Assembly: GCA_947625485.1 (NCBI GenBank)
Contig: CANQOP010000007.1
Span: 9,330-73,329, forward strand
From: an uncultured Clostridia bacterium
Lineage (GTDB): Bacteria > Bacillota > Clostridia > Oscillospirales > Acutalibacteraceae
Direction of reading: 5' to 3'
Length of the DNA stretch: 64,000 nucleotides
Under the pieces are notes generated by a model. The model had not been told where the DNA came from. It searched no databases and saw only the letters and a list, made by a program, of their open reading frames with translations. Positions 2,165-19,393 of this stretch are shown piece by piece (the stretch's first letter is position 1; each line of letters begins with the position of its first letter). The position numbers were made by a program, and so were the translations under genes.

Positions 2165-5100
2165 ATGATGTCACAATCAGAGAACAGACAGTCCTTGCAC
2201 AGTCTTTATTCTCCAAAGTTCGAGCACGATAACTGCGGTATCGGAGCAGTCGTAAACATCAAGGGTATAAAATCCCACGACACAGTAACCAACGCTCTCA
2301 CAATTGTTGAAACGCTTGAACACCGCGCAGGAAAGGACGCCGACGGTAAGACGGGAGACGGCGTAGGCATACTTTTACAGATTTCGCACAAGTTCTTTAA
2401 AAAAGCGGCTAAGAAGATAGGCATTAGCCTGCTCTCCGAGAGGGACTACGCTGTGGGTATGTTTTTCTTCCCTCAGAAGGAGCTTCTTCGCAATCAGGCT
2501 AAAAAAATGTTCGAGATTATCGCCGAAAAAGAGGGCCTCGAGGTGCTCGGCTGGCGTGAAGTCCCGTCCGATAATAACACTATCGGAAAGCGTGCACTCG
2601 ACTGTATGCCTAACATACAGCAGTGCTTTATCAAGCGTCCCGCAGGCGTTAAAAAGGGACTGGACTTCGACCGCAAGCTCTACGTTGCACGCCGTGTCTT
2701 TGAACAGAGCAACGAGGATACATATGTAGTTTCCCTATCGAGCAGGACGATTGTATATAAAGGTATGTTTCTTGTCGGCGATTTAAGGAAATTTTTCCTA
2801 GATTTGCAGGACGAAGACTATGAGTCGGCTATCGCTATGGTTCACTCCCGGTTCTCGACCAACACGAATCCCAGCTGGCAGAGAGCTCATCCGAACAGAA
2901 TGATAGTTCACAACGGTGAAATCAATACTATCCGCGGAAACGCGGACAAAATGCTAGCGCGAGAGGAAACTATGCGTTCCGAACACCTCAAAGGCGACCT
3001 GGACAAGGTTATCCCCGTCGTAAATACAGAGGGCTCCGACTCCGCTATGCTCGACAACACGCTTGAATTTCTCGTTATGAGCGGAATGGAGCTTCCGCTG
3101 GCGGTTATGATAACCATTCCCGAGCCTTGGGACAGGAACGGCACTATGACTCAGAAAAAGAAGGATTTCTACCAGTATTACGCAACTATGATGGAGCCGT
3201 GGGACGGTCCTGCTTCAATACTTTTCTCCGACGGCGATATTATGGGCGCTGTGCTCGACCGCAACGGTCTGCGCCCGTCGAGGTATTACATTACCGACGA
3301 CGGCAACCTTATACTATCTTCCGAGGTAGGTGCGCTTCCGATAAGCCCTGATAAAATCATATCCAAGGAAAGACTGCACCCCGGCAAAATGCTTCTTGTA
3401 GACACGGTTCAGGGAAAGCTTATCGACGACGACGAGCTCAAGGAGTATTACGCCTCAAAGCAGCCATACGGCGAGTGGCTCGACAGCAATCTTGTAAAAC
3501 TAAAGGATTTGAAAATTCCCAACGCAAAGGTAGAGGAACACCACCGCGAACAGCGCAAAAAGCTCCAGAAAGCTTTCGGATATACATACGAGGACGTTAT
3601 GACCTCTATCCTCCCTATGGCTAAAAACGGAAGTGAATCTATTTCCGCTATGGGCACAGACAGTCCTCTGGCAGTGCTTTCAAAAGAGCCTCAGCCGCTG
3701 TTTAACTATTTTAAACAGATGTTTGCTCAGGTTACAAATCCTCCGATTGACGCGATTCGCGAAGAAATTGTAACCTCTACTACCATATACATCGGCGAGG
3801 ACGGCAATATTCTTGAGGAAAAGCCCGAAAACTGCAAGGTTATGAAAATTAATAACCCTATCCTCACTTCAACCGATATTTTAAAACTCAAAAATATGAA
3901 AATCAGCGGTTTTAAAGTTGCCGTTATCCCTATTCTTTATTATAAGAACACAAAACTCTCAAAGGCGATAAAAAGGCTCTTTATCGAGGCTGACAAGGCT
4001 TACAACGACGGTGCTAACATCCTCATTCTCTCCGACCGCGGAGTTGACGAGTACCACCTCGCTATTCCCTCCCTGCTCGCAGTTTCGGCTCTGCACCAGC
4101 ACCTTGTTGTCACAAAGAAAAGAACCTCTCTCGCAATTGTGCTTGAGAGCGGCGAGCCGAGAGAAGTCCATCACTTTGCCACCCTGCTCGGATACGGTGC
4201 GAGCGCTGTCAATCCCTATCTCGCTCAGGAAACTATCCACGAGCTTATCCACGACGATTTGCTTGATAAGGATTACTACGCCGCTGTCAACGACTACAAC
4301 AGCGCTGTTCTCCACGGCATCGTAAAAATTGCGTCAAAAATGGGTATTTCGACCATTCAGTCCTACCAGGGTTCGCAGATTTTCGAGGCTATCGGCATAG
4401 GCAAAGACGTAATTGACGAATACTTTACAGGTACAGTCAGCAGAATAGGCGGTATCACTATAAAGGATATTGAAGAAAATGTCGATAAGCTCCACACTTC
4501 GGCGTTTGACCCTCTCGGACTGAGTGCCGATACAGAGCTTGAGTCGCGGGGAAGTCACAAATTCAGAAGCGGCAAGGAGGAACACCTATACAATCCGCAG
4601 ACAATTCATACCCTCCAGCACGCAGCGCGCACGAACGACTATGAGCTATACAAAAAGTATTCACATATGATTTCAGAAGAAATGGATCCCGTGAGCATAA
4701 GAGGACTTTTCGATTTCAACTACGCGGAAACACCCGTACCTTTAGAAGAGGTTGAGAGCGTTGAGTCAATAGTAAAACGTTTCAAAACGGGCGCTATGTC
4801 TTACGGCTCAATCTCACAGGAGGCTCACGAGGCTCTTGCTGTTGCAATGAACAGACTTCACGGAAAGTCCAACTCGGGCGAGGGCGGAGAAAGCATAGAG
4901 CGGCTGCTCACTAAGGGCACAGAAAACAACCGCTGCTCCGCTATCAAACAGGTAGCCTCGGGACGTTTCGGAGTAACCTCACGTTATCTTACATCGGCTG
5001 ACGAAATTCAGATAAAAATGGCTCAGGGCGCAAAGCCCGGCGAGGGCGGACACCTTCCGGGAAACAAGGTTTATCCGTGGATTGCGAAAACACGCCACTC

Positions 5101-6712
5101 CACGCCCGGCGTGTCGCTGATTTCTCCCCCGCCTCACCACGACATTTACTCCATTGAAGACTTGGCTCAGCTCATCTACGACCTAAAAAACGCAAATAAG
5201 GACGCGAGGATCTCCGTAAAACTCGTTTCCGAGTGCGGCGTCGGTACTGTTGCGGCAGGTGTTGCAAAGGCAGGCGCGGGCGTAATCCTCATTTCAGGTT
5301 ACGACGGCGGCACGGGAGCCGCACCGAGAAACTCGATTTACAACGCAGGTCTGCCGTGGGAGCTCGGTCTTGCCGAGGCTCACCAGACGCTTATTATGAA
5401 CGACCTTAGAAACAAGGTCGTCATTGAGACCGACGGTAAGCTGATGACAGGACGCGACGTAGCTATAGCCGCCATACTCGGAGCCGAGGAATACGGCTTT
5501 GCGACCGCTCCTCTGGTAACTCTCGGATGCGCGATGATGAGAGTTTGTAACCTTGATACCTGTCCGTTCGGCGTTGCAACGCAGAATCCCGAGCTTCGGA
5601 AAAAGTTCACAGGTAAACCCGATTACGTCGTAAACTTCATTCTCTTTGTAGCAAGAGAGCTAAGAGAGTATATGTCCATGCTCGGCGTGAGAACAATTGA
5701 TGAGCTTGTCGGAAGAATTGACCTCATAAAACCCAAGGCTAATCTTTCCGACCGCGAAAAAGAGATTGACCTCTCAAATATTCTCAATTGCGACTTCGCG
5801 GGAGGAAAGATTGAATACGCGAACAAGAGCGGCTATGACTTCAAACTCGAAGAAACAATTGACGAAAAGGTTATTGCAAAAAAGTTTAAGACGGCTCTCT
5901 CGAACGGCTCTAAAAAGGCCATAGAGATTGACGTAAAAAATACAGACCGTTCTCTCGGCACGATTTTCGGCTCGGAAATCACGAGAAAATACGACGATAA
6001 GCTTGAGGAAGATACTTACAAAGTAATATGCAACGGCTCGGGCGGTCAGAGCTTTGGCGCGTTTATTCCTAACGGCTTAACGCTTGAGCTTTCGGGCGAC
6101 AGCAACGACTACTTCGGAAAGGGACTTTCGGGCGGAAAGCTCGTTGTTTACCCGCCTAAAGGCTCTAAGTTCAAGGCTGACGAGAATATTATCGTCGGAA
6201 ATGTCGCGCTCTACGGCGCAACGAGCGGCAAGGCGTTTATAAACGGTGTTGCGGGAGAACGCTTCTGCGTGCGCAACTCCGGCGCTACGGCTGTTGTTGA
6301 GGGCGTAGGCGATCACGGCTGCGAATATATGACAGGCGGACGCGTTGTTGTAATCGGAAAAACAGGCAAAAACTTCGCCGCAGGCATGTCGGGAGGCGTT
6401 GCATATGTTCTCGACGAGGACAGAGACCTCTACACAAAACTTAACAAGGAAATGGTTCTTTTCACCGAAGTCAGCGAAAAATATGACATTATTGAGTTAA
6501 AGGAGCTCATAGGCGAGCACGTAAAGCACACAGACTCCGCTAAGGGTAAAGAAATACTTGAAAACTTTGATGAATACCTGCCGAAGTTTAAGAAAATAAT
6601 TCCGCACGACTACAAAAAGATGATGTCCGCAATCGCATCTATGGAAGAAAGAGGTCTCGACCACGAACAGGCAAAAATCGAGGCATTCTATCAAATCATA
6701 AACAACAAGTAA
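2165..6712 (+). CDS. gltB: Glutamate synthase large subunit
   Basis: 1515 aa; N-terminal CGIG amidotransferase, HSRFSTNT, FMN-binding region and GXGXG C-terminal domain. Confidence 0.97.
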   Translation: MMSQSENRQSLHSLYSPKFEHDNCGIGAVVNIKGIKSHDTVTNALTIVETLEHRAGKDADGKTGDGVGILLQISHKFFKKAAKKIGISLLSERDYAVGMFFFPQKELLRNQAKKMFEIIAEKEGLEVLGWREVPSDNNTIGKRALDCMPNIQQCFIKRPAGVKKGLDFDRKLYVARRVFEQSNEDTYVVSLSSRTIVYKGMFLVGDLRKFFLDLQDEDYESAIAMVHSRFSTNTNPSWQRAHPNRMIVHNGEINTIRGNADKMLAREETMRSEHLKGDLDKVIPVVNTEGSDSAMLDNTLEFLVMSGMELPLAVMITIPEPWDRNGTMTQKKKDFYQYYATMMEPWDGPASILFSDGDIMGAVLDRNGLRPSRYYITDDGNLILSSEVGALPISPDKIISKERLHPGKMLLVDTVQGKLIDDDELKEYYASKQPYGEWLDSNLVKLKDLKIPNAKVEEHHREQRKKLQKAFGYTYEDVMTSILPMAKNGSESISAMGTDSPLAVLSKEPQPLFNYFKQMFAQVTNPPIDAIREEIVTSTTIYIGEDGNILEEKPENCKVMKINNPILTSTDILKLKNMKISGFKVAVIPILYYKNTKLSKAIKRLFIEADKAYNDGANILILSDRGVDEYHLAIPSLLAVSALHQHLVVTKKRTSLAIVLESGEPREVHHFATLLGYGASAVNPYLAQETIHELIHDDLLDKDYYAAVNDYNSAVLHGIVKIASKMGISTIQSYQGSQIFEAIGIGKDVIDEYFTGTVSRIGGITIKDIEENVDKLHTSAFDPLGLSADTELESRGSHKFRSGKEEHLYNPQTIHTLQHAARTNDYELYKKYSHMISEEMDPVSIRGLFDFNYAETPVPLEEVESVESIVKRFKTGAMSYGSISQEAHEALAVAMNRLHGKSNSGEGGESIERLLTKGTENNRCSAIKQVASGRFGVTSRYLTSADEIQIKMAQGAKPGEGGHLPGNKVYPWIAKTRHSTPGVSLISPPPHHDIYSIEDLAQLIYDLKNANKDARISVKLVSECGVGTVAAGVAKAGAGVILISGYDGGTGAAPRNSIYNAGLPWELGLAEAHQTLIMNDLRNKVVIETDGKLMTGRDVAIAAILGAEEYGFATAPLVTLGCAMMRVCNLDTCPFGVATQNPELRKKFTGKPDYVVNFILFVARELREYMSMLGVRTIDELVGRIDLIKPKANLSDREKEIDLSNILNCDFAGGKIEYANKSGYDFKLEETIDEKVIAKKFKTALSNGSKKAIEIDVKNTDRSLGTIFGSEITRKYDDKLEEDTYKVICNGSGGQSFGAFIPNGLTLELSGDSNDYFGKGLSGGKLVVYPPKGSKFKADENIIVGNVALYGATSGKAFINGVAGERFCVRNSGATAVVEGVGDHGCEYMTGGRVVVIGKTGKNFAAGMSGGVAYVLDEDRDLYTKLNKEMVLFTEVSEKYDIIELKELIGEHVKHTDSAKGKEILENFDEYLPKFKKIIPHDYKKMMSAIASMEERGLDHEQAKIEAFYQIINNK

Positions 6713-17225: not shown

Positions 17226-17392
17226 TTTTATTTTCTGGATATATAATACCATAATTTTCAGATTTGTCAATACCAATTTTAAAATTTTTATAAGACGCAC
17301 AGTAAAAACATATGAAACTTCGTGCACAACAAATATTATTTACATATGTTATTAATATTTCCTATTCGACAAAACATTACACTAATTAACCC

Positions 17393-17421
17393 TTGACAAA
17401 CCCGCAATAACGCGCTATAAT
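17393..17421 (+). promoter_or_regulatory. SigA promoter of tRNA-fMet
   Basis: Perfect TTGACA-N17-TATAAT. Confidence 0.85.
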
Positions 17422-17450
17422 GTAAAAGCTGAATACGACAGCGCAGATAT

Positions 17451-17526
<76 letters not shown>

Positions 17527-17533
17527 GTTCTAT

Positions 17534-17579
17534 TGTAGAGTAGGTTTTGTAATTCAAAAAATTGCAAAACCTACCCTGC
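17534..17579 (+). terminator. Long hairpin terminator after tRNA-fMet
   Basis: 21-bp stem with one mismatch and G-T wobbles, loop CAAA. Confidence 0.75.
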
Positions 17580-17639
17580 AAAAAATTTTTTAATATTATT
17601 TACCTTATAGGGTAGTAATATATTTGATTGGGTTTTTGT

Positions 17640-17850
17640 ATCGTTCCCCATTCAGCAACGCCGGATAGTCAACCAACCTATCCGTACTCTCCTCACAACG
17701 TCTCCCGACATGATGAGTGAGTTGTCGATGTAGTTACAAACAAGATTATCCCCTAATCTCAATAAATCTTGCAGAGTGGATAAGGCTCTTATCCATACGG
17801 AAGTTAGCTACAGAATAGGTCGGCTCGCTACTCCTATGCTGGCACATAGG
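17640..17850. ncRNA. Candidate multi-hairpin structured RNA of unknown class
   Basis: At least five short inverted-repeat stems in about 210 nt of GC-richer, ORF-free sequence inside an AT-rich island. Confidence 0.3.
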
Positions 17851-17987
17851 TTAAGTTTTTAAATTCTTAGTTTAAAGATTACGGCGAAACTATTATCCGC
17901 AGGCTGGATATATTCGATACAAATATCCTATTCAGTTGTAAATTTATAAAAAGTAAGACCTGCGCCGCAGGTAAACAGTACAGGTCT

Positions 17988-18150
17988 TGACAAATCTATC
18001 AAAAACACTTAGAATTAAGTGCAATTGGAGCTTCACAAGTCGAGTGCTCTTTACTCGGCGCAAGCTCATAAGTTGTTGGTCGCAGCTTATGGGCTGTGGG
18101 GCTTATTTTCTATATATTTAAATTATATACCATATATATAGATTTGTCAA
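17988..18150. ncRNA. Convergent sense/antisense small-RNA pair
   Basis: Plus-strand TTGACA-N17-TAGAAT (17988-18016) and minus-strand TTGACA-N17-TATAAT (18150-18122) face each other across two hairpins. Confidence 0.45.
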
Positions 18151-18182
18151 TATATGGAAAATTATATTTTTAAAAAATATCA

Positions 18183-18218
18183 AAAAAATAGCAGGTGTCC
18201 CTCGGAGGGACACCTGCT
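18183..18218 (-). terminator. Terminator after toxN
   Basis: AGCAGGTGTCCCTC-c-GAGGGACACCTGCT followed by a T-run on the minus strand, immediately after the stop. Confidence 0.8.
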
Positions 18219-18224
18219 TAACTT

Positions 18225-18830
18225 TTACGATAAACCGCCAAAACCTTGACCGCCTAAATTTTGAGAGCCGATATTCGGAATTTCGTTTGGCTGAATAGGT
18301 TCACTTGTTTGTGCATTTGGTTGTTGTTTATGAGCTTGATAATAATCTACAGACTTTGCTTCCAACAGCAAGAAATTACAACAACGATTTTTTAAATTAA
18401 AATTAGCTGAACCATCTGATATTTTTTGATATAAATTGCGAGCTTTATTTAAAATGTAGTCTTTTTTAGAATTGCACCACGTCAACTGATTGTTAAGGAG
18501 ATTTCTATACATATCATTATCATAACTTCTATGAAGGTCATTAGGATTAACCTTTGTTGCCAGTTCAGGAGCAATAGGTATCATATTGTTAAGATTTATC
18601 GCACCCCATACCCCACCATTTATTTTTATAAAATCAATTTGATTTTTCATTTTTAAGTGCTTAGGTTTTGGAGAAGATAACGGTGCATAATATGTATGTC
18701 TATTCACTTCAAGTAATACGCCCAAGAACGGACGAGTGCTTTTCTGTTGCATTGTATAAGGCACACATTTATCAAATTGCCTTAAATAATCGCAATAATC
18801 AGAATTAACCGTATAAAATGATAAACTCAT
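18225..18830 (-). CDS. toxN: Type III toxin-antitoxin endoribonuclease, ToxN/AbiQ family
   Basis: FYTVNSDYCDYLRQFD..VP, RPFLGVLL, YYAPLSSPKPKH, INLNNMIPI motifs; preceded by a terminator and tandem repeats; ATG at 18830. Confidence 0.92.
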   Translation of the reverse strand: MSLSFYTVNSDYCDYLRQFDKCVPYTMQQKSTRPFLGVLLEVNRHTYYAPLSSPKPKHLKMKNQIDFIKINGGVWGAINLNNMIPIAPELATKVNPNDLHRSYDNDMYRNLLNNQLTWCNSKKDYILNKARNLYQKISDGSANFNLKNRCCNFLLLEAKSVDYYQAHKQQPNAQTSEPIQPNEIPNIGSQNLGGQGFGGLS

Positions 18831-18843
18831 ATAAAATCCTTTC

Positions 18844-18880
18844 AAAAAAAGGAAACGGGACTGATAAGCTCAGCCCCGTA
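18844..18880 (-). terminator. Terminator between toxI and toxN
   Basis: CGGGGCTGA...TCAGTCCCG followed by TTTCCTTTTTTT on the minus strand; canonical position for type III TA. Confidence 0.85.
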
Positions 18881-18994
18881 CTTTTTTAGTTCCCACTTAT
18901 TGGTAGGGTACACCGCTTTTTTAGCTCCCACTTATTGGTAGGGTACACCGCTTTTTTAGCTCCCACTTATTGGTAGGGTACACCGCTTTTTAAG
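18881..18994 (-). ncRNA. toxI: ToxI antitoxin array: three 35-nt repeats plus a short partial
   Basis: Units at 18881, 18916 and 18951. RNA GGUGUACCCUACCAAUAAGUGGGAGCUAAAAAAGC can form an H-type pseudoknot (GGU/ACC, CCC/GGG). Confidence 0.92.
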
Positions 18995-18996
18995 TG

Positions 18997-19049
18997 TAGG
19001 GATTACTCCCTTCATTTATTATTATACTCAAAAATAAAAATATGTCAAT
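18997..19049 (-). promoter_or_regulatory. toxIN promoter and leader, copy A
   Basis: TTGACA-N16-TATAAT followed by an AGGGA-gtaa-TCCCT hairpin. Confidence 0.85.
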
Positions 19050-19064
19050 TAAGATTGAGTAAAA

Positions 19065-19172
19065 TTATAATTTATTAATTAAATGTTTATCATTGTCCCT
19101 CCGAGGGACATCTGCTTCTTGGAGATATTCTATGTAATCATTCGAAACATTATAGAATTTTAGTTTATCCAT
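19065..19172 (-). pseudogene. Truncated second ToxN-family toxin (35 codons)
   Basis: AGGAG RBS, then MDKLKFYNVSNDYIEYLQEADVP, which matches the ToxN N-terminal FY.V..DY..YL...D pattern; homology is lost at a palindrome and a stop follows. Confidence 0.75.
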
Positions 19173-19188
19173 ATCAAACTCCTAATAC

Positions 19189-19216
19189 AAAAAGGGAACG
19201 GTAATCGTCCCCTTTT
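19189..19216 (-). terminator. Terminator between second antitoxin array and truncated toxin
   Basis: AAAAGGGGACG-atta-cCGTTCCCTTTTT on the minus strand. Confidence 0.75.
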
Positions 19217-19231
19217 CGCTTTCATTATAAT

Positions 19232-19298
19232 CCACATTTAGAGCTGTGGAACACTCTGCATAAATCACCCACATTTAGAGCTGTGGAACACTCTGCAT
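19232..19298 (-). ncRNA. Second type III antitoxin-like array: two 30-nt identical cores, 37-nt period
   Basis: Cores at 19232-19261 and 19269-19298. RNA AGAGU-GUU-CCACA-GCUCU-AAA-UGUGG forms a two-stem H-type pseudoknot. Confidence 0.8.
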
Positions 19299-19351
19299 TA
19301 GGGATTACTCCCTTTATTTATTATTATACTCAAAAATAAAAATATGTCAAT
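19299..19351 (-). promoter_or_regulatory. toxIN promoter and leader, copy B
   Basis: 52 of 53 nt identical to 18997-19049. Confidence 0.85.
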
Positions 19352-19393
19352 GAAATTTAATTGTTAACCCCTTTGCAACCGGTAGAAAACAGC

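Follow-up and report, generated by a model that had tools for sequence, protein, structure and literature searches.

A putative family of structured ~310-nucleotide RNAs behind tRNA genes at the edge of mobile islands in Ruminococcus

Results

Organization of the locus behind the initiator tRNA gene

The window, a 64,000-nucleotide stretch of DNA from an uncultured Clostridia bacterium, contains a tRNA-Met(CAT) gene of the initiator type (17451–17526, plus strand), which is preceded by a consensus promoter (17393–17421, plus strand). The gene is followed by an AU-rich spacer hairpin (17540–17575, plus strand) with no U-tract directly behind it, which stands where empty sites carry strong U-tract terminators after their tRNAs. 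Further downstream lies a conserved structured element of ~313 nt (17625–17937, plus strand), which extends from the 5′ strand of helix P0 to the invariant 3′ tail CCUAUUCAGUU. The tRNA gene is the upstream neighbour of the element and the likely source of its transcription. The earlier note had described positions 17640–17850, right behind the tRNA-fMet gene, as free of open reading frames and richer in GC than their surroundings. This stretch indeed starts ~100 nt past the tRNA gene, its GC content is 0.44 compared with 0.25–0.37 in the flanks (the genome mean is 0.436), and its longest open reading frame is 36 aa. The extent given for it was too short, as the homology detected by nhmmer spans ~310 nt rather than 210 nt. 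The comparison of copies located behind different tRNAs sets the start of the unit 12–15 nt before the motif GUAUC and its end after CCUAUUCAGUU. In its own 1.77-Mb genome, the element is present in a single copy. That it could be a decayed coding sequence, as the earlier note had considered, is contradicted by the absence of reading frames longer than 36 aa, by single-base indels within conserved blocks, by indel lengths that are not multiples of three, and by conservation that tracks base pairing.

The element lies at the tRNA-proximal end of an AT-rich island of ~2.2 kb (17527 to ~19745), the limits of which were determined by comparison with the nearest relative, genome G095. Its placement in a defence island by the earlier note is borne out by the toxIN system of this island. 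The intact type III toxin-antitoxin system is encoded on the minus strand (18225–19300) and includes toxN (Pfam ToxN_toxin, E 2.6e-51) and a toxI array of 3.2 copies of a 35-nt repeat (18881–18991). Antitoxins of the type III, ToxI-like kind consist of tandem direct repeats of 34–36 nt upstream of the toxin gene; the element itself contains no tandem repeats and was rejected as such an antitoxin. A second antitoxin-like array of two repeats (19227–19298) is accompanied by a truncated toxin start only and lies behind a promoter block that is duplicated (18997–19052 and 19299–19354). Two other genomes (L037 and L038) likewise encode ToxN homologues in the islands that follow the element.

Just past the element, the window contains a module (17945–18150) that is conserved in nine relatives. 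It includes a minus-strand terminator hairpin, which overlaps the −35 box of a plus-strand promoter (17987–18015), and a three-way-junction small RNA of ~90 nt that ends in a terminator (~18022–18108). A perfect convergent promoter on the minus strand (18150–18122) would give rise to an antisense RNA that fully overlaps the small RNA. A 41-codon reading frame on the antisense RNA was considered as a membrane toxin and rejected, since its product is basic and not toxin-like.

Homologues and their distribution

Homologues of the element were detected by BLAST, nhmmer, a scan with a conserved 23-mer and a metagenome scan. The BLAST search identified copies in 17 of 222 same-genus genomes (Ruminococcus sp.), with one to three copies each; five of the 17 carriers have the element in two or three places. 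The 23-mer, scanned over one genome per prokaryotic species, yielded 29 loci, 23 of which were confirmed by the profile and belong to Ruminococcus, Ruminococcaceae, Clostridia or close relatives, and the remainder are chance matches. Rumen copies were added by the metagenome scan. In total, same-genus genomes and rumen metagenomes provided 22 distinct full-length copies and several decayed ones. Internal or terminal deletions are present in copies L008, L010, L011, L015, L016, and L021, and because many copies are partly deleted, the element appears to be dispensable. Judged by their record titles, two of the carriers (Ruminococcaceae bacterium P7 and Lachnoclostridium sp. MSJ-17) come from culture, which makes the RNA directly testable.

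When applied to other genera of the same order (150 genomes, 97 genera), a covariance model built for the 5′ half of the element (151 positions) detected no copy. BLAST searches of annotated plasmid and phage collections gave no match, and a pattern scan of IMG/VR phage contigs returned chance matches only. None of the families in Rfam 15 matches the element in the window or in eight relatives, at either gathering or permissive thresholds (E up to 10 in the window at 17350–18250, E up to 1 in the eight relatives), and the only RNAs found were tRNAs.

Linkage to tRNA genes

A tRNA gene identified by aragorn on the same strand is located 45–130 nt upstream of the element in 17 of 22 loci, and ~375 nt upstream in two more, where a small open reading frame lies in between. 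Of the remaining copies, two lie behind incomplete tRNA-Arg genes and one is not near any tRNA. The upstream genes represent seven tRNA types: fMet/Met, Tyr, Arg, Ala, Thr, Gly, and Val. As there are only 37 tRNAs in the 1.77-Mb genome, this proximity is not due to chance. Near-identical elements follow different tRNAs in different species, which indicates that the element moves horizontally. In one genome, an identical unit begins directly after the CCA of tRNA-Gly, tRNA-Met, and tRNA-Arg. The elements behind tRNA-Tyr and tRNA-Arg are nearly identical, and RNA-guided targeting was therefore rejected, since no segment of the element tracks the tRNA.

A conserved hairpin module of ~50 nt (CAGTAAAGTGATTTAAGCAGCCGAAAAGCTG...), which has no U-tract, is positioned just upstream of the element in loci L024, L023, L016, L014, L013, and L012. 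One genome has it immediately next to the CCA end of tRNA-Gly, tRNA-Met, and tRNA-Arg, and two others have it next to that of tRNA-Arg and tRNA-Gly. In genome G172 (L103:560–700, contig C11), an internally deleted copy of the element is preceded by a remnant of a tRNA-Arg gene, which lacks its 5′ half (31 nt) but retains the promoter and leader hairpin. The retention of the tRNA promoter identifies this remnant as a 5′-deleted gene rather than an att copy.

Predicted fold of the element

The fold predicted by hand and with RNAalifold consists of ~13 helices and a pseudoknot, and holds across the 22 distinct copies. Helices P0 and P1 close the molecule, P2 encloses P3 and P4 and forms with them a 5′ three-way domain, P5 and P6 are central hairpins, and P9–P12 constitute the 3′ domain. 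The fold also includes the conserved junction GUAGUUAC and one variable hairpin. All positions given below are on the plus strand. The 5′ strand of P0, UGAUUGGG (17625–17632), pairs with CCUAUUCA (17927–17934); the leader sequence varies from locus to locus, yet is complementary to the invariant tail, including G-U pairs. The closing helix P1, GUAUCG (17638–17643) paired with CGAUAC (17915–17920), spans ~270 nt and covaries, with the versions AUAUC/GAUAU and GCACC/GGUGC. P2a is formed by CAUU (17649–17652) and GAUG (17727–17730) and contains an invariant U-G pair. P2b pairs CAAC (17656–17659) with GUUG (17721–17724) and occurs in five covarying versions: CAAC/GUUG, CGGA/UCCG, CCGA/UCGG, CAGC/GCUG, and CAGA/UCUG. 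The P4 hairpin ACGUC/GACAU (17698–17711) carries the conserved loop UCCC(G/A)AC.

The P5 hairpin CAAGAUU/AAUCUUG (17741–17771) contains a variable insert; the family consensus of its stem is CAAGA/UCUUG, replaced by CAAGG/CCUUG in one subtype. It is followed by the P6 hairpin AGAGU/GCUCU (17773–17789) with a conserved 7-nt loop GGAUNAG, which is GGAUAAG in the window; the stem exists as AGAG/CUCU and as the covarying AGGA/UCCU. The apical loop of P5, CCUAAUCU (17752–17759), forms a pseudoknot with the strand AGAAUAGG (17812–17819), located ~60 nt downstream of the loop. The pseudoknot is kept through three or four sequence versions and in relatives reads CACACAG/CUGUGUG, CAUACAG/CUGUAUG, and CAUACU/AGUAUG. 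In the 3′ domain (17826–17886), P9 encloses P10, CCUAUG/CAUAGG (17833–17850), and P11, UUAAG/CUUAG (17851–17870). P9 itself, CGC (17826–17828) with GCG (17884–17886), is tentative and shows no covariation. Similarly tentative is P12, AACU (17888–17891) with GGCU (17902–17905), which has one mismatch in the window, is dominated by G-U pairs in relatives, and fails in one subtype. A CAAC/GUUG hairpin across the pseudoknot strand and the helix P12′ were weighed as alternative pairings and discarded after hand comparison of the alignment, as they are not conserved.

All six stems listed in the earlier note are present in the window, and three of them correspond to conserved, covarying helices. These are CGGATAG (17662) with CTATCCG (17678), which forms the conserved and covarying hairpin P3 (CGGAUAG/CUAUCCG, 17662–17684); AAGATT (17742) with AATCTT (17765), which is part of P5; and CCTATG (17833) with CATAGG (17845), which is P10. 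The other three are specific to the window. The pairing of CGACA (17706) with TGTCG (17723) is not kept in relatives, nor is that of TGTAG (17729) with CTACA (17808), which had been proposed to close two of the stems into a multibranch junction. The stem TGGATAAG (17777) with CTTATCCA (17788) is missing from relatives and competes with the conserved AGAG/CUCU pairing of P6.

Covariation supports the fold

The fold was evaluated on a MAFFT alignment of the 22 distinct copies that had not been fitted to any structure, using 71 base pairs, and compared with slid controls in which the 3′ partners were shifted by 1–3 columns. In the proposed fold, 89.1% of the cells contain standard pairs, compared with 31–45% in the controls, 31 of the 71 pairs are changed on both sides (9–16 in the controls), and the covariation score is 0.263 (0.06–0.09 in the controls); because the 22 sequences represent only ~five divergent subtypes, the covariation events are fewer than these cell counts suggest. 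The observed values were reached by none of 500 shuffles. In an alignment of the 5′ half fitted to the model, 93.1% of the cells form pairs, and both sides have changed in 22 of 37 pairs. Covariation, which the earlier note had named as a check of its proposal, is thus strong in both alignments. The plus-strand fold of a single 231-nt sequence is no better than those of shuffled sequences (z −0.62); therefore, the hairpins by themselves do not exceed chance and are no evidence, and the signal is that of the 22 homologues.

Strand and transcription signals

Several features favour the plus strand as the RNA strand. The alignment contains 147 G-U cells compared with 61 A-C cells, and five positions have invariant or predominant G-U pairs, for which the opposite strand would have C-A mismatches. 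The element keeps the same orientation with respect to the tRNA. The commonest subtype contains a plus-strand terminator 25–30 nt past the element, and in the other subtypes a minus-strand terminator lies between a downstream convergent promoter and the element.

We also considered that the element is part of a structured minus-strand RNA, transcribed from the perfect consensus promoter that points at it from downstream in every subtype, and regard this weaker rival as improbable. Promoters of the TTGACA-N17-TATAAT type do face the element 80–190 nt past its 3′ end, and the minus-strand fold of the 231-nt sequence scores better than that of the plus strand (z −2.76). The strands are not distinguished by their thermodynamic or alifold energies, the alifold energy being slightly lower on the minus strand. 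In subtypes 1 and 3, however, the minus-strand terminator, a hairpin followed by five or six T, is positioned to end minus transcripts just before the element. A minus-strand RNA would also contain C-A mismatches in place of the invariant G-U pairs of P2a and P6 and of a mostly-G-U pair of P12, and the constant orientation relative to the tRNA speaks against it as well.

Read-through from the tRNA is suggested by the sequences that follow the tRNA genes. At filled sites, the sequence diverges from the first base after CCA, and the U-tract is mostly absent. At empty sites in the genome of the window, the genes of tRNA-Tyr, tRNA-Ala, tRNA-Thr, and tRNA-Gly are directly followed by strong U-tract terminators, and the empty tRNA-Arg site has a hairpin with a short U run only. 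Two filled loci share upstream synteny with empty loci in the genome of the window. Against such read-through, a terminator-like site separates the element from the tRNA in one locus.

Islands adjoining the element

The element forms the tRNA-proximal end of small, mobile, and highly variable islands. The DNA beyond it is variable and often ends the contig. Where the islands are readable, their genes encode ToxN, HicB-like, MazF-like, Abi_2, and AbiEii proteins, non-specific nucleases, HTH regulators, and proteins without assigned function. No partner protein was identified, and no gene neighbours the element consistently.

In five loci of the commonest subtype (L027:8956–9645, L029, L031, L026, and L032), the first gene behind the element is convergent and belongs to a family of proteins of 140–229 aa. 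The conserved 229-aa protein has no match in Pfam, PADLOC, or NCBIfam. The region between the element and this gene contains a bidirectional terminator, a perfect promoter for a short minus-strand RNA, and operator-like repeats. In genome G223, a 300-nt segment right after the element is repeated at 99% identity (L102:3608–3907 and 4880–5179), and the island contains several copies of the palindrome GTCCCTCCGAGGGAC, which in the window also flanks toxN.

At the same tRNA-fMet site in genome G095, the island is replaced by tandem units of ~190 nt (L083:2330–2615 and L109:2450–3162), each of which ends in a copy of the last ~17 bases of the tRNA. The units look like leftovers of repeated integrase-type insertions. 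The genome of the window has a like arrangement after tRNA-Thr(CGT) on contig C33.

These tandem copies of a tRNA 3′ end bring up another weaker rival, according to which the element acts as double-stranded DNA, either as an integrase arm or attachment region or as a miniature transposable element with P0 and P1 as terminal inverted repeats. The element lies at tRNA genes, which classically serve as integration sites, a tyrosine integrase next to ffh marks the end of one island, and the copy number of one to three, together with the decayed copies, would suit such an element. Nevertheless, we consider a double-stranded role very improbable. Protein-binding sites in double-stranded DNA would not be expected to maintain long-range and internal helices that covary as the sequence changes, and the P0 partner is complementary to the invariant tail through G-T pairs, not identical as in inverted repeats. 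In addition, there is no target-site duplication, the far side of the island has no copy of the tRNA 3′ end, and the integrase is linked to the element in only one locus among those examined.

The main rival, which the earlier note had put forward as its second option, is that the element folds as single-stranded DNA and serves as an sso-like origin or as another folded site for the single-stranded transfer or replication of the island. The ssoA, ssoT, and ssoU origins of rolling-circle plasmids and ICEBs1 are orientation-specific, ORF-free, strongly folded sequences of 150–300 nt on mobile DNA of Firmicutes. The element resembles them in being orientation-specific, ORF-free, folded, and carried by mobile DNA of Firmicutes. 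Covariation with G-T wobble fits a folded single-stranded DNA equally well. The fixed orientation at the end of mobile islands also suits this reading, and so does the mobility implied by near-identical copies that follow different tRNAs in separate species. The predicted fold, with multiple domains, conserved loops, and a pseudoknot, differs from known sso origins, which are long imperfect hairpins. Origins of the ssoA type carry a CS-6 motif (TAGCGT) in a terminal loop and an RSB, and share their mobile element with a rolling-circle Rep; other sso types have no fixed motif. The sequence TAGCGT does not occur in 17625–17937, and no rolling-circle Rep or relaxase is encoded among the ~40 island reading frames scanned in six loci, most islands being cut by contig ends. 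Furthermore, the flanking terminators and the missing tRNA terminator suit a transcript, and thus an RNA gene, better than an origin. We therefore regard a single-stranded DNA function as unlikely.

Discussion

A proposed role of the element as RNA

It is reasonably probable that the element represents an uncatalogued family of structured non-coding RNAs of ~310 nt, located at the tRNA-proximal end of mobile toxin-antitoxin, abortive-infection, and nuclease islands in Ruminococcus. The earlier note's proposal of either a functional RNA of a new kind or a structure of single-stranded DNA is supported by the existence of homologues, the covariation, the lack of an Rfam match, and the evidence against a decayed coding sequence.

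Judging from sequence comparison, we infer that the element is probably an RNA gene carried by the island and transcribed by read-through from the promoter of the host tRNA. The island would replace the tRNA's own terminator, so that the strong tRNA promoter could read through into the element. The 3′ processing of the tRNA would then release a compact RNA protected by its paired ends. The exposed conserved segments, namely the P4 loop UCCCRAC, the P6 loop GGAUNAG, and the junction GUAGUUAC, may bind a protein or RNA partner in trans for the benefit of the island.

Few bacterial non-coding RNAs exceed ~300 nt and combine many helices with a pseudoknot, and several of these have proved to be ribozymes or unexpected assemblies. 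It is conceivable, though improbable, that a catalytic or self-assembling RNA is the active part of the mobile island. Such an RNA might be an RNA-only or RNA-centred defence or maintenance device that is switched on by host tRNA transcription, or might aid the precise placement of the island behind the CCA of unrelated tRNA genes.

Comparison with known systems

Several known RNAs were considered and rejected. The failure of the earlier note to match the element by eye to HEARO/omega RNAs or group II introns was confirmed with the Rfam models. No match to the HEARO/omega RNA of IscB-TnpB was obtained, and no IscB or TnpB reading frame is present in the neighbourhood. Group II introns, including the terminator-seeking class C, were rejected because neither Intron_gpII nor group-II-D1D4 matches at permissive thresholds, and because the element starts with GUAUC inside the closing helix instead of the 5′ GUGYG of these introns. 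A search of the full-text literature found no description of the element, which may be an unnamed entry in a large catalogue of candidates.

The RtT RNA (RF00391) of the E. coli tyrT operon consists of repeats derived from the tyrT trailer. Like RtT RNA and the 3′ETS-leuZ sponge, the element lies directly 3′ of a tRNA in the same orientation, and could plausibly originate from the tRNA primary transcript. Unlike them, it lacks a copy of the tRNA 3′ end and travels with islands behind seven tRNA types instead of belonging to one operon. It is also far larger and more structured than the 3′ETS sponges. An identity with RtT RNA was rejected, as there is no Rfam match and no internal tandem repeat in the element.

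The closest parallels are found among larger RNAs. [quoted passage not shown] Both are large non-coding RNAs with complex folds that are frequently encountered close to tRNA genes and on mobile or prophage DNA; the discovery of ROOL was made in rumen data (PMC5737381). The element shares with ROOL (RF03087) and GOLLD (RF01998) the position next to a tRNA, the location on mobile DNA, and a predicted multi-helix fold with a pseudoknot. In contrast to these RNAs of ~580 and ~800 nt, it is ~310 nt long, is confined to one genus, and was not found in phage collections. It is not a member of either family, as their covariance models do not match it even at permissive thresholds (E up to 10 for the window, up to 1 for the eight relatives). 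With no shared sequence or model, the element is classed as a new family of the ROOL/GOLLD-like kind that also resembles the tRNA-trailer RNAs. The family adds a sharp genomic rule, since nearly every copy is found behind a tRNA gene, at the border of a toxin or defence island. It bears on how small, integrase-poor islands land exactly after tRNA genes, on whether islands exploit host tRNA promoters, and on the role of large tRNA-adjacent RNAs such as ROOL and GOLLD.
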